From the sequence record OR544954: a stretch of 64,000 bases of DNA; one strand, 5' to 3'. The notes beneath the pieces are model-generated. The model was not told the origin of the DNA and did not search any database. It saw only the letters and a list, made by a program, of their open reading frames with translations. Positions 10,578 to 22,195 of this stretch are shown in pieces. The DNA is from Escherichia phage vB_EcoM_EP32a. Position 1 is the stretch's first letter; each line of letters begins with the position of its first letter. A program made the position numbers and the translations under genes.

Positions 10578-10865
10578 ATGAAAACCTATAAAGAATTTAT
10601 ATCACCTGTTGCTAACGTTTCTACTCTGACCGAAGCATCCCTTACTTCTGAAGTTATTAAAACAAATAAAGGACGTGAGGGTAAACCAATGATTAGTCTG
10701 GTTGATGGTGAAGAAGTAAAAGGTACTGTTTACTTAGGGGATGGATGGTCTGCTAAGAAAGATGGCGCTACTATTGTTATCTCTCCGGCTGAAGAGACTG
10801 CACTGTTTAAAGCTAAGCATATTTCTGTAGCTCAGCTTAAAATTATTGCAAAAACTCTTCTGTAA
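10578..10865 (+). CDS. internal protein with capsid-targeting leader (IPI position)
   Basis: N-terminus MKTYKEFIS resembles T4 internal-protein CTS MKTYQEFIAE; 95 aa. Confidence 0.7.
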   Translation: MKTYKEFISPVANVSTLTEASLTSEVIKTNKGREGKPMISLVDGEEVKGTVYLGDGWSAKKDGATIVISPAEETALFKAKHISVAQLKIIAKTLL

Positions 10866-10867
10866 GT

Positions 10868-10906
10868 AGTTTACATGCTGATAGGACTATGTTATAGTAG
10901 TCCTAT
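10868..10906 (+). promoter_or_regulatory. T4-type early promoter with flanking inverted repeat
   Basis: GTTTACA, -10 TATAGT inside palindrome GATAGGACTA/TAGTCCTATC. Confidence 0.5.
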
Positions 10907-10935
10907 CAAATCAAATGAGTAAATGGAGAAATAAA

Positions 10936-11121
10936 ATGAAACGCGCTGAACTGATTCGTAATGTTGCTGTAGTAATTGCTTCAATGGCTTTTAGTTTTTC
11001 GATGTTTGTAGGATTCATTTGTGGACTACTGACAACAACTGAAAACTCTATCTCATTGGTAGTAGCATTTCTAATCGGCTTAATCGCTATCGTTATGGAT
11101 AAAATTGCAAAAGGTGAGTAA
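10936..11121 (+). CDS. small hydrophobic membrane protein
   Basis: ATG after GGAG; hydrophobic 61-aa product. Confidence 0.5.
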   Translation: MKRAELIRNVAVVIASMAFSFSMFVGFICGLLTTTENSISLVVAFLIGLIAIVMDKIAKGE

Positions 11122-11122
11122 A

Positions 11123-11485
11123 ATGAAATATCACGTATATGCTGATTTTGAAGCAAATCCTTCTAAAGACCCGGATTGTCGTTTGATACGTAATCCGTTT
11201 GATTCAGCAGCTCAAGCATGGACTTGGATTAAATCTAAATCGCCTGGTTATATGTTCTTTGAAGTAGTCGATGACAATGGTACACTGCATCCAGAACCTA
11301 CAGAAACTATTAATTTCCTTCTGTTTGCTGGTTATGACTGTTATCCTCTTGGTGGTATTGACGACCTTGTTGCTACAGGAAAAACTGTTGAGGCTCTTCG
11401 CGAAATTTATAAAAACGCAGAAGAAAATTTTGACTGGTATCATATTGTCAGTGCACATACTTTTGAAGTGGTGGAACACTCATGA
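11123..11485 (+). CDS. hypothetical protein
   Basis: ORF MKYHVYADFEANPSK..., start after GGTGAG. Confidence 0.55.
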   Translation: MKYHVYADFEANPSKDPDCRLIRNPFDSAAQAWTWIKSKSPGYMFFEVVDDNGTLHPEPTETINFLLFAGYDCYPLGGIDDLVATGKTVEALREIYKNAEENFDWYHIVSAHTFEVVEHS

Positions 11486-11552
11486 TTCTTTACGCTAAAG
11501 TAAAATCTGTCGAGAACGGATATGAAAGCGACTAGTCGATGACTATGGTATT

Positions 11553-11753
11553 TTGACTAATTTTGAAGTTGAAAAGGTTTATATCGACCGTTCATCTTCG
11601 CAAGTTAAATTACTCTGTGAAGATGATAAATTTAACACAGTGAACTTTGATTTCTTTATTGAAACAGAAAAAGGCCCTCTTGAATATGATATTTTCAAGA
11701 ATCCTTTGAAATTACGTTGCATTGAATATAATTACATTAATATGGTACGGTGA
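11553..11753 (+). CDS. hypothetical protein
   Basis: 66-aa ORF. Confidence 0.45.
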   Translation: MTNFEVEKVYIDRSSSQVKLLCEDDKFNTVNFDFFIETEKGPLEYDIFKNPLKLRCIEYNYINMVR

Positions 11754-11850
11754 TTAAATGAATATTCGTTTAGGCAGTACAATTCCTAAGGGCTACGTAA
11801 TTGATGTCACTACCTAGGAAAATGATGGTGACAACTATAAAACCAAAACA

Positions 11851-12273
11851 TTGTTTGAAGTGGAAGAGCATGAGCTCCAACAGTTTAAATATCTCTTGAA
11901 GAAATTTAAGAGTCGTCATTCTAGCACTAAAGCCGAACGTTATTGTGGTAATACACCATTCAGTGATTGCTCGCTTTTAATCTATGAATACTTGGTTGAA
12001 GGGCTGTTCTCAGACCAGCTTTATCCAGAATTTATTAAAAAGGTCTTTGATATTGAAGTCGACCTCGGTAATAAATCTGAAGAAGACGAAGCGCGTGTAT
12101 TTGACCTGTTCCATGAGAATGGATATTTAGTATCAGAAGGTCTCATTGATATTCTTGGCCATGCTTCTGAATACTATGATTACGATTTCTTGCGTGTAGT
12201 TGAACGTGTCGAATTTGCTTATATTGAAGAAGAAATCGTTTTGCCAACCGTTAAAATGGTTGATTTGCTTTAA
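11851..12273 (+). CDS. hypothetical acidic protein (possibly truncated by an upstream in-frame TAG)
   Basis: ORF track 140 aa with a non-ATG start; the same frame is open from ATG 11758 but contains TAG at 11815-11817. Confidence 0.45.
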   Translation: MFEVEEHELQQFKYLLKKFKSRHSSTKAERYCGNTPFSDCSLLIYEYLVEGLFSDQLYPEFIKKVFDIEVDLGNKSEEDEARVFDLFHENGYLVSEGLIDILGHASEYYDYDFLRVVERVEFAYIEEEIVLPTVKMVDLL

Positions 12274-12342
12274 GAATTATGTGTTATTATTAATTCATAC
12301 CCTCTATTACCAAAGGTGCTCTAAAGTGCCTTTCATAATAGA

Positions 12343-12416
12343 AAGTTATTTAGGCCCTGTAGCTCAATGGTTAGCAGCAGTCCCCTCATAAGGGAAAGGT
12401 TACCAGTTCGAATCTG
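12343..12416 (+). tRNA. tRNA with CAU anticodon (Met or Ile2), no encoded CCA
   Basis: Anticodon stem TCCC/GGGA with loop CTCATAA; T-arm ACCAG-TTCGAAT-CTGGT; acceptor pairing is imperfect. Confidence 0.55.
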
Positions 12417-12432
12417 GTCTGGGTCATATATT

Positions 12433-12509
12433 CGAGGCATAGCTCAATTGTATAGAGCAACGGACTTCTAATCCGTAGGTTGAAGGTTAGAATCCTTCTG
12501 TCTCGACCA
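12433..12509 (+). tRNA. tRNA-Arg (anticodon UCU) with encoded CCA
   Basis: Full cloverleaf folded by hand: acceptor CGAGGCA/TGTCTCG, D-stem GCTC/GAGC, anticodon stem ACGGA/TCCGT with loop CTTCTAA, T-arm GAAGG-TTAGAAT-CCTTC, then ACCA. Confidence 0.8.
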
Positions 12510-20519: not shown

Positions 20520-20528
20520 GTAATAAAT

Positions 20529-20550
20529 ACCTCCTATAAACGTGGGAGGT
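20529..20550 (+). promoter_or_regulatory. hairpin sequestering the lysozyme SD
   Basis: ACCTCC ... GGAGGT stem includes the GGAGG SD 4 nt before the e ATG; cf. known T4 gene e control. Confidence 0.45.
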
Positions 20551-20553
20551 ATT

Positions 20554-21042
20554 ATGAATATATTTGAAATGCTTCGTAATGACGAAGGTCTTAGACTGAC
20601 TTTATACAAAGACACTGAAGGCTTTTGGACGATTGGCATAGGCCATTTAGTAACAAAGAACCCATCTTTAGCCGTAGCTAAAGCTGAACTTGACAGAATG
20701 ATCGGACGTAAATGCAACGGTACAATTACCCTTGATGAGGCTGAAAAGCTATTTAATGAAGACGTTGATAAAGCTGTTCGCGGAATCTTGGGTAATGCTA
20801 AACTTAAACCGGTATATGATTCTTTAGATGCAGTTCGTCGATGTGCATTGGTCAATATGGTCTTCCAAATGGGTGTAACAGGCGTCGCCGGTTTTACTAA
20901 TTCTCTTCGTATGCTTCAACAGAAACGTTGGGACGAGGCGGCAGTAAATCTAGCCCAATCTAAATGGTACCGTCAGACACCTAATCGCGCGAAACGCGTA
21001 ATCTCAACATTTAAAACAGGAACTTGGAAAGCGTATATATGA
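20554..21042 (+). CDS. e: endolysin (T4 lysozyme e)
   Basis: [32 protein letters not shown]..., near-identical to recalled T4 lysozyme. Confidence 0.95.
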
Positions 21043-21320
21043 AAACATATAGTGAATTTTTATCAGAATCTATTCTTAACGAAGCTACTGACACATTTGC
21101 AACTAAGCTAGGTGCAGCTTTGGTTGAAGCTGAAAGTCTATTAGCACGTATTTCTGAACTTGCTAGTAAGATAGATACTCGCAAATTTGAACGTACCAGC
21201 GATATCGCTAAGCTTGAAGCCTTGTTGCGTATGTGTGATAAACCGGAAGAAATCGCTAAGAACGGCTCGCTGATGAAACAACGTCTTGAAAAATATATTT
21301 CAGGCGCTTCAGAAAAATAG
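21039..21320 (+). CDS. internal protein with capsid-targeting leader (ipII/ipIII position)
   Basis: [10 protein letters not shown]... leader; ATGA overlap with e stop. Confidence 0.7.
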
Positions 21321-21352
21321 TGTTTACTTCCTCCAAGGGTTTTGATACTATA
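21321..21352 (+). promoter_or_regulatory. T4-type early promoter
   Basis: GTTTAC ... TACTAT. Confidence 0.45.
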
Positions 21353-21378
21353 CATTCATCAACTACTTGGAGGAAATT

Positions 21379-21792
21379 ATGACTCGTATCAATTTAACAC
21401 TTGTTTCTGAACTGACCGACCAACATCTTATGGCTGAGTATCGTGAATTACCACGCGTATTTGGTGCAGTCCGTAAACATGTTCAAAACGGTAAACGTGT
21501 AAAGGATTTTAAAATCTCTCCAACATTTATCTTAGGCACAGGTCACGTAACATTCTTTTACGACAAACTCGAATTTTTACGTTTACGTCAAATCGAGCTA
21601 ATCGCTGAATGCTTGAAACGTGGTTTCAAAATCAAGGACACGACTGTTCAGGATATTTCCGACATCCCTGCCGAATTTCGTAATAATTACGTCCCGTCCG
21701 AAGCGTCCATTGCGATAAGTCAAGCACGCTTAGATGAAAAAATTGCTCAACGTCCGACTTGGTACAAATACTATGGTAAATCAATTTACTAA
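21379..21792 (+). CDS. denV: endonuclease V (pyrimidine-dimer DNA glycosylase) DenV
   Basis: [34 protein letters not shown]..., near-identical to recalled T4 DenV. Confidence 0.93.
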
Positions 21793-21799
21793 GGAAAAA

Positions 21800-22060
21800 A
21801 TGAAAATGTATCAAGAATTTATCATTGAAGCAGATGCCAAAGACCCTAAATTTAAAGTTAAAGCTTTCATTGGTGATGCGGAAGACTTTGGCTCATTAAA
21901 ACGTAATGGGTATTCTTTCTTAGGTGGTGATGGTAAAGAAATCAACACCTATGCAAAACGTAGTGAAATTGCTTATGTTGTAGTAAGTCCTAAAGTAGAT
22001 GTTGACGATATTGGATACGATTTTAACAACTTCGGAATTATTTCTGGCGGTAAAGCTTAA
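21800..22060 (+). CDS. internal protein with capsid-targeting leader
   Basis: MKMYQEFIIEA leader; 86 aa. Confidence 0.65.
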   Translation: MKMYQEFIIEADAKDPKFKVKAFIGDAEDFGSLKRNGYSFLGGDGKEINTYAKRSEIAYVVVSPKVDVDDIGYDFNNFGIISGGKA

Positions 22061-22061
22061 A

Positions 22062-22095
22062 TTGTTTACGCTTAAGTATTAATATGGTATAATTA
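22062..22095 (+). promoter_or_regulatory. T4-type early promoter
   Basis: GTTTAC, 18-bp spacer, TATAAT. Confidence 0.5.
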
Positions 22096-22123
22096 CTCTA
22101 TCAAAACAAACAAGGAAACAAAA

Positions 22124-22195
22124 ATGAAAACATATAAAGAATTTATCGCCGATCCAACCTGTAATAAGGTCGAGCCCAAGTGCGGTAATGGGTTT
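22124..22195 (+). pseudogene. remnant or minimal internal-protein gene (leader + 13 aa, in-frame TAG)
   Basis: MKTYKEFIADPTCNKVEPKCGNGFT then TAG; same frame stays open to 22260. Confidence 0.4.

Follow-up and report, generated by a model that had tools for sequence, protein, structure and literature searches.

The analysed stretch, hereafter the window, comprises 64,000 nucleotides of Escherichia phage vB_EcoM_EP32a (EP32a; sequence record OR544954) and carries genes for internal proteins (ip) of the T4 type. A sequence-only reading of the window had listed four open reading frames (ORFs) with internal protein leaders, starting at positions 10578, 21039, 21800 and 22124. All four are found at these positions on the plus strand in the ORF table; three are intact genes, and the fourth is a short ORF of 25 codons (Table 1). 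The gene order of the window is T4-like: gene 1, 57A, 57B, ipI, tRNAs, the e.x genes, nudE, e, ip, denV, ip, vs.8, vs.7 and vs.6. The window contains the two classical T4-type ip loci, one after 57B and the other around e and denV. The 13.5 kb region around the four ORFs shares 97.8% identity with Escherichia phage APCEc01, and many other members of Mosigvirus (the RB69 group) show 96–97% identity over the same region. By this similarity, the window is assigned to an RB69-like coliphage of the genus Mosigvirus.

Table 1. Features of the two ip loci, in window positions. A slash in a leader marks the predicted cleavage site; aa, amino acids; nt, nucleotides; pI, isoelectric point.
Feature	Position	Strand	Remarks
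57A	9815-10045		Landmark upstream of ipI
57B	10045-10500		Landmark upstream of ipI
ipI, internal protein I orthologue, 95 aa	10578..10865	+	Predicted leader of 19 residues (MKTYKEFISPVANVSTLTE/A), then an IPI*-like mature body of 76 residues
tRNA cluster	12353-12509		Landmark downstream of ipI
Lysozyme gene e	20554..21042	+	Landmark of the second ip locus, from its translation and the annotation of relatives; stop overlaps the 21039 start (ATGA)
Internal head protein, ip5 family, 93 aa	21039..21320	+	10-residue leader followed by S; mature body of about 83 aa, pI 6.3, predicted all-helical
denV (endonuclease V)	21379..21792	+	Landmark within the second ip locus, from its translation and the annotations of relatives
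Internal head protein, 86-aa family	21800..22060	+	Leader MKMYQEFIIE/A; mature body of about 76 aa, pI 5.2
Early/middle-type promoter	22065..22093	+	TTTACG, 17 nt, TGgTATAAT, with GCTT upstream; 10/12 consensus, extended -10
25-codon ORF, putative scar	22124..22201	+	MKTYKEFIADPTCNKVEPKCGNGFT, TAG stop
Surviving start of an ipIII-type gene, 29 nt	22124..22152	+	Codons 1-9 and 2 nt; all 29 nt match the first nucleotides of the 192-aa gene (L005/L006, position 4745)
Deletion junction	22152..22153		977 bp missing relative to Av-05/phiC120; no microhomology
Former intergenic DNA upstream of the vs.8-like gene	22153..22257	+	First 49 nt form codons 10-25 and the TAG of the 25-codon ORF

The capsid-targeting leader

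The pattern MK.Y.EF occurs four times in the six-frame translation of the 64 kb, exactly at the four ORFs. Its expected number, obtained from 100 mononucleotide shuffles and from 100 triplet shuffles, averaged 0.01 in each case, and no shuffle gave more than 1. At the DNA level, the pattern ATGAARACNTAY was observed 3 times against 0.36 expected, and the leaders form near-identical repeats of about 24–30 nt within the genome. The start MKTY(K/S/Q)EF, which had been ascribed to all four ORFs, applies to three of them in the form MKTY(K/S)EF. The 21800 product departs from it by starting with MKMYQEF, with Met at residue 3, and the relatives of this gene read MKTYQEF.

In T4 IPIII, residues 1–10 are sufficient for incorporation into the head, with residues 4 and 7 serving targeting and residues 8 and 10 serving processing; cleavage by the prohead protease, gene product 21 (gp21), takes place after L/I-x-E (PMC9026906). 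All four copies have Tyr4 and Phe7, and the three intact genes have L/I-x-E sites; the description of the N-termini as T4-type capsid-targeting leaders therefore holds. The site at residues 8–10 reads LSE in the 21039 product and IIE in the 21800 product, and the IPI-like copy at 10578 contains LTE/A at residues 17–20. Among the leader ORFs of relatives, 84 of 91 have L/I-x-E at residues 8–10, and three IPI-type copies have ISP. A GGA-rich ribosome-binding site is located 6–9 nt upstream of the starts at 10578, 21800 and 22124; the ORF at 21039 has none, and its start codon overlaps the stop codon of e, the lysozyme gene (ATGA, 21039–21042).

Behind the leader the proteins are unrelated, as had been noticed from the translations. 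Comparison of the three bodies with the leaders removed gave no BLASTP match at E<=1e-3, and the bodies fall into three separate families out of the 17 unrelated ones that were obtained from 88 leader ORFs with a length of 40 aa or more (IMG/VR loci, annotated relatives and the window). The wider distribution of the leader was assessed in 80 denV-encoding loci taken from IMG/VR, the T4-like ones being L005–L040. These contained 69 leader ORFs, in 29 of the 80 loci, and all 29 are among the T4-like ones. On the basis of the sequences, the surroundings of denV are a polymorphic cassette array of leader genes. The capsid-targeting leader is confirmed as a reliable marker for injected accessory proteins.

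The three intact internal protein genes

The gene at 10578 is located downstream of 57A/57B and before the tRNA cluster, in the same order as in RB69. Its product matches the Pfam family PF11634 (IPI_T4) with an E value of 2.6e-49 and 165.5 bits (cut-off 25), residues 20–95 covering the full profile 1–76. The match to PDB entry 2JUB, the mature T4 IPI*, has an E value of 7.4e-41 and aligns query residue 20 to chain residue 1 (2JUB_A), which places the predicted mature start exactly after LTE. The mature part shares 70 of its 76 residues with T4 IPI* (92% identity) and differs by the substitutions T2S, A10T, I28V, A65V, H67Q and N74T. The gene is like that of T4 IPI (IPI*, PF11634, 2JUB), the inhibitor of GmrSD of E. 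coli CT596, in the length of 95 aa, the 19-residue leader ending with LTE/A and the position after 57B. It differs in its host phage, a Mosigvirus; the DNA of the type member RB69 contains arabinosylated, not glucosylated, cytosine derivatives (PMC6024577, PMC13326640). Judged by homology and position, the 10578 gene is a true orthologue of T4 IPI. IPI* inhibits GmrSD, and RB69 IPI has been reported to protect RB69 from GmrSD likewise (PMC4437046, PMC6024577). By orthology, we strongly infer that the 10578 product inhibits GmrSD.

The product of the 21039 gene belongs to phrog_3499, annotated as internal head protein (2.1e-46). A tblastn search with its body gave matches in 496 phage records, 238 at an identity of at least 90% and 258 below 60%. 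The low-identity matches that were sampled are about 47% identical and come from T4-like phages, and the copy in VR26, a Tequatrovirus, is annotated as ip5. The AlphaFold2 model is a moderate all-helical one, with a predicted local distance difference test score (pLDDT) of 72.6 and a predicted template modelling score (pTM) of 0.36. A Foldseek search with this model returned no PDB match, and nothing in BFVD below E=3.8. The ip5-family gene of the RB69 reference, RB69p127 (L085, 4923–5204), reads MKTYMNFYQNLSLNE in place of the usual leader. Residues 5–12 are scrambled, apparently by a one-base loss and a nearby one-base gain, with Tyr4, Phe7 and the LNE site kept; this leader may be a true variant or may stem from an old error in sequencing.

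The mechanically called ORF for the 21800 gene runs from 21734 to 22060, and its internal Met at 21800 begins the leader MKMYQEF. The product matches phrog_2667, also annotated as internal head protein (1.5e-21), and a tblastn search found it in 217 phage records. Its body equals that of RB69p125 except for one residue, Lys85 versus Gln. The AlphaFold2 model of this protein is unusable (pLDDT 43). The homologue search for the 21039 and 21800 products gave shallow sets of near-identical sequences only, with 5 and 12 clusters, respectively, among 5.8 billion proteins.

The ip5-family and 86-aa genes occupy the same positions in RB69, APCEc01, SA79RD and NHEP10. Both products share the leader, the L/I-x-E site at residues 8–10, the small unrelated bodies and the e–denV–vs.8 locus with the polymorphic T-even ip cassettes (Repoila et al. 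1994, as cited in PMC12373910). They differ from the basic IPI* in that their mature forms are neutral to acidic, and the 21800 leader differs from those of the cassettes by Met, not Thr, at residue 3. The novelty of the intact genes does not survive comparison with public records: all three are 97–100% identical to genes annotated as internal head or virion proteins. RefSeq uses these names for all three in APCEc01 and RB69, and the 21039 and 21800 families are annotated as internal head proteins in hundreds of phage genomes.

The short ORF at 22124

The 22124 ORF had been described as a minimal or decayed copy consisting of the leader plus 13 residues before an in-frame TAG. The TAG is present, and the comparison with relatives bears out decay but not a minimal copy. 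In APCEc01 and SA79RD, two full genes are located between the 86-aa gene and the vs.8-like gene, in place of which the window has the short ORF alone. The first 29 nt of this ORF (ATGAAAACATATAAAGAATTTATCGCCGA) are those of a 192-aa ipIII-type gene found in two IMG/VR contigs (L005 and L006, the latter being phage Av-05) and show three differences from the APCEc01 gene. After ...GCCGA, the window goes directly to TCCAACCTGTAATAAGG, which in Av-05 is located 977 bp farther on, in non-coding DNA ahead of the vs.8-like gene. From this point the window is collinear with Av-05 DNA starting at L006 position 5751 and with a non-coding stretch of APCEc01 that runs from L001 position 14310 and stops short of the vs.8-like gene. 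With the breakpoints mapped in this way, the losses relative to Av-05 comprise the body of the ipIII-type gene, a leader-bearing gene of 109 aa and the 5′ portion of the spacer. Codon 10, GAT (Asp), is formed across the join (GA/T), and the Glu10 needed for processing is gone. The encoded peptide thus consists of nine leader-derived residues, Asp10 spanning the junction and 15 residues from former intergenic DNA; the earlier figure of leader plus 13 differs in the way of counting.

An early/middle-type promoter precedes the ORF. Its sequence is identical in APCEc01, SA79RD and Av-05, and the annotation of SA79RD places early and middle promoters there. This promoter served the lost ipIII-type gene and now precedes the short ORF. 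The ORF lacks the body of about 180 aa and the Glu10 of an IPIII-type internal protein, and by its anatomy it is best regarded as a scar and not a gene in its own right. Compared with T4 IPIII (the inhibitor of ECOR17 GmrS1/GmrSD2) and its homologues of 189–198 aa, a family that is intact in Av-05 and phiC120, it still has the promoter, the ribosome-binding site and 29 nt from the gene start; the body is missing entirely, Glu10 is changed to Asp and no effector is left.

Two ideas about the breakpoints were rejected. Deletion through the repeated leaders or through microhomology was ruled out, as neither breakpoint has bases in common with the flanks of the other; the deletion is therefore treated as illegitimate. 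A structured RNA at the 3′ breakpoint was also discarded: the 173-nt intergenic sequence of APCEc01 folds no better than its shuffles (z = +1.46) and has no Rfam match better than E=8.

The gap could alternatively be an artefact of assembly or consensus calling, with the full ipIII-type and 109-aa genes really present in the phage. The near-identical leader repeats of about 24–30 nt are of a kind that can mislead short-read assemblers, and one sequence only displays the junction. However, the 3′ breakpoint lies in unique intergenic DNA and not in a second leader copy, so that a collapse of repeats would not give this join. Furthermore, ipIII deletions arise readily in T4 populations (PMC9391042), and comparable decay is found in other genomes, namely OLB35, P0009 and P0016. 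An artefact is thus considered improbable. In OLB35 (L004, 1251–1520), the decayed sequence is an unannotated chimeric cassette, in which a leader of the 109-aa type, MKTYQEFITEV, is out of frame with an 86-aa body and meets a stop after 22 codons. The public proteins P0009 and P0016 are internally deleted members of the 86-aa family, with 19 and 48 alignment columns missing, respectively, which indicates that decay of 86-aa ip cassettes is common.

It is hardly credible that the 25-codon ORF is instead a functional minimal unit, acting either as a micro-protein packaged without processing or as an upstream ORF that tunes the expression of the vs.8-like gene. It does retain a strong promoter, a ribosome-binding site, the ATG, Tyr4 and Phe7. 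In T4 IPIII, Asp10 blocks processing and still allows targeting (PMC9026906), and the peptide could in principle be packaged intact. On the other hand, residues 11–25 come from DNA that is non-coding in every relative. The junction flanks are contiguous in none of 50,697 phage records, and the 33-nt junction sequence is absent from IMG/VR and from the JGI metagenome contigs; there is thus no conservation that would suggest selection on the ORF. The downstream vs.8-like gene is itself interrupted by a stop codon. Reading the ORF as a deletion scar, we predict by analogy with IPIII that the peptide, if made, would be targeted to the head and remain unprocessed, and nothing suggests a function for it.

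The stop in the vs.8-like gene (window 22258–22797; 179 aa in APCEc01, SA79RD and NHEP10) is an in-frame TAA at 22426–22428. It directly follows a Walker-A-like motif, GGRQSGK, and the relatives have TCA (Ser) at this position. Either a nonsense mutation or an error in sequencing would account for the TAA. Taken with the adjacent ip deletion, it suggests that the genome has been losing accessory genes.

The scar resembles the ipIII deletions that arose during laboratory evolution of T4 (Srikant et al. 2022, PMC9391042) as a deletion of a dispensable ip gene, with an expected cost only on hosts with the matching defence. The laboratory deletions compensated segmental amplifications elsewhere in the genome (PMC9391042), whereas the scar described here may be of natural or laboratory origin. 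If the specificity of T4 IPIII holds for the lost homologue, EP32a would be restricted by hosts with ECOR17-type GmrS1/GmrSD2, which is relevant to the use of the phage in therapy or typing.

Probable anti-defence role and the surrounding ip cassettes

The sequence-only reading regarded the leader-bearing proteins as candidates for injected anti-defence effectors. That diverse leader-bearing proteins act in this way against restriction is established in the literature (PMC3012670; PMC12373910; bioRxiv 10.1101/2025.11.20.689424), and the 10578 gene is orthologous to IPI. Internal proteins become part of the prohead core and, after trimming, remain in the head until ejection together with the DNA (PMC9026906, PMC3012670). 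[quoted passage not shown] On ECOR17 the phage needs IPIII, which is also active in leaderless form if the host produces it (PMC9391042). McrBC is inhibited by Bas37_0260, a further protein with the leader (bioRxiv 10.1101/2025.11.20.689424).

We propose that the first 10–19 residues of the three intact products act as the capsid-targeting sequence and would bind the proteins to the scaffolding core of the prohead. The gp21 protease would then cut after L/I-x-E, and the mature proteins would remain in the head and be injected with the DNA. The 10578 product, as the IPI* orthologue, would bind and block GmrSD-type type IV enzymes, which cut DNA with sugar-modified cytosine. The 21039 and 21800 products, which we infer to be packaged, are most likely injected inhibitors of other type IV restriction variants, by analogy with the characterised members of the class. 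The fourth leader would be the result of an illegitimate deletion of 977 bp that took the ipIII-type body and the neighbouring 109-aa ip gene and fused the 29 nt of leader to intergenic DNA that is open for 15 more codons. Three T4-type injected internal proteins and a 977-bp deletion scar are very probably the correct explanation of the four ORFs.

Several observations weigh against this explanation. Structure prediction, one of the checks named together with the claim, gave no functional clue for the 21039 and 21800 products. The literature search found no virion proteomics for the ip5 and 86-aa families. The canonical late promoter TATAAATA does not occur on the plus strand of positions 9500–23500, despite the three ip genes and the lysozyme gene located there. 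The promoter sites found near the ip genes are of the early/middle type only, the strong one precedes the scar, and the 21039 gene is coupled to e by the ATGA overlap; that the genes are expressed during prohead assembly is therefore an assumption taken over from T4. As for the scar, the junction has no microhomology and is seen in a single sequence, which makes an assembly or consensus error conceivable, though improbable, and Av-05 is only the closest available model for the parent of the deletion.

The 21039 and 21800 products might instead be mainly structural or packaging accessories of the head, such as scaffold helpers or DNA counter-ions (roles suggested in the past for the basic internal proteins of T4), rather than anti-defence effectors. 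A T4 IPIII mutant assembles heads more slowly, has a burst of about 40% of normal and forms more polyheads, and DNA binding was suggested for the basic internal proteins because each is present in about 300 copies per head (PMC9026906); contacts with DNA phosphates are made by internal protein lysines (PMC3012670). In their mature form, however, the 21039 and 21800 products are near-neutral or acidic (pI 6.3 and 5.2, respectively), which is a poor fit to DNA neutralisation and argues against a counter-ion role. Moreover, the ip genes are gained, lost and swapped as cassettes among close relatives, unlike structural genes, and every leader-bearing protein of known function inhibits type IV restriction (PMC12373910; bioRxiv 10.1101/2025.11.20.689424). 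A mainly structural role is thus unlikely, and the ip5-family and 86-aa-family proteins are reasonable candidates to be paired with type IV restriction variants. It is conceivable, though doubtful, that they neutralise immediate-early defences other than type IV restriction, or type IV enzymes specific for the arabinosylated DNA of Mosigvirus. If true, this would extend the repertoire of injected inhibitors beyond the known GmrSD and McrBC pairs.

Taken as a whole, the findings are known biology: the intact genes are catalogued, the anti-restriction reading is essentially textbook and the short copy is specific to this genome, so that the significance beyond annotation is small. EP32a has a reduced ip set, with three intact leader genes and the short ORF compared with six leader genes in each of RB69, APCEc01 and SA79RD.

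Differences between these phages are also seen elsewhere in the ip loci. A third ip locus is present after the tRNA cluster in APCEc01 and SA79RD, where a 154-aa gene with the leader MKSYAEFLTE is annotated as hypothetical (L001, 3777–4241; L002, 3779–4243). RB69 has a 146-aa gene with the leader MKTYAEFLTE at the same place (L085, 13551–13991). In the window this cassette is cleanly absent at about 13215, and the sequence runs directly into the next gene. Between 57B and ipI, RB69 carries an extra leader-bearing gene of 108 aa, RB69p156 (L085, 16784–17110), at the place of which the window has a 77-nt spacer only (10501–10577), with a promoter-like site and a hairpin. Farther downstream, the vs.6 homologue of the window (23109–23471) carries a glycyl-radical motif, RVSGYAVRF, at the C terminus; relatives annotate it as the autonomous glycyl radical cofactor GrcA.

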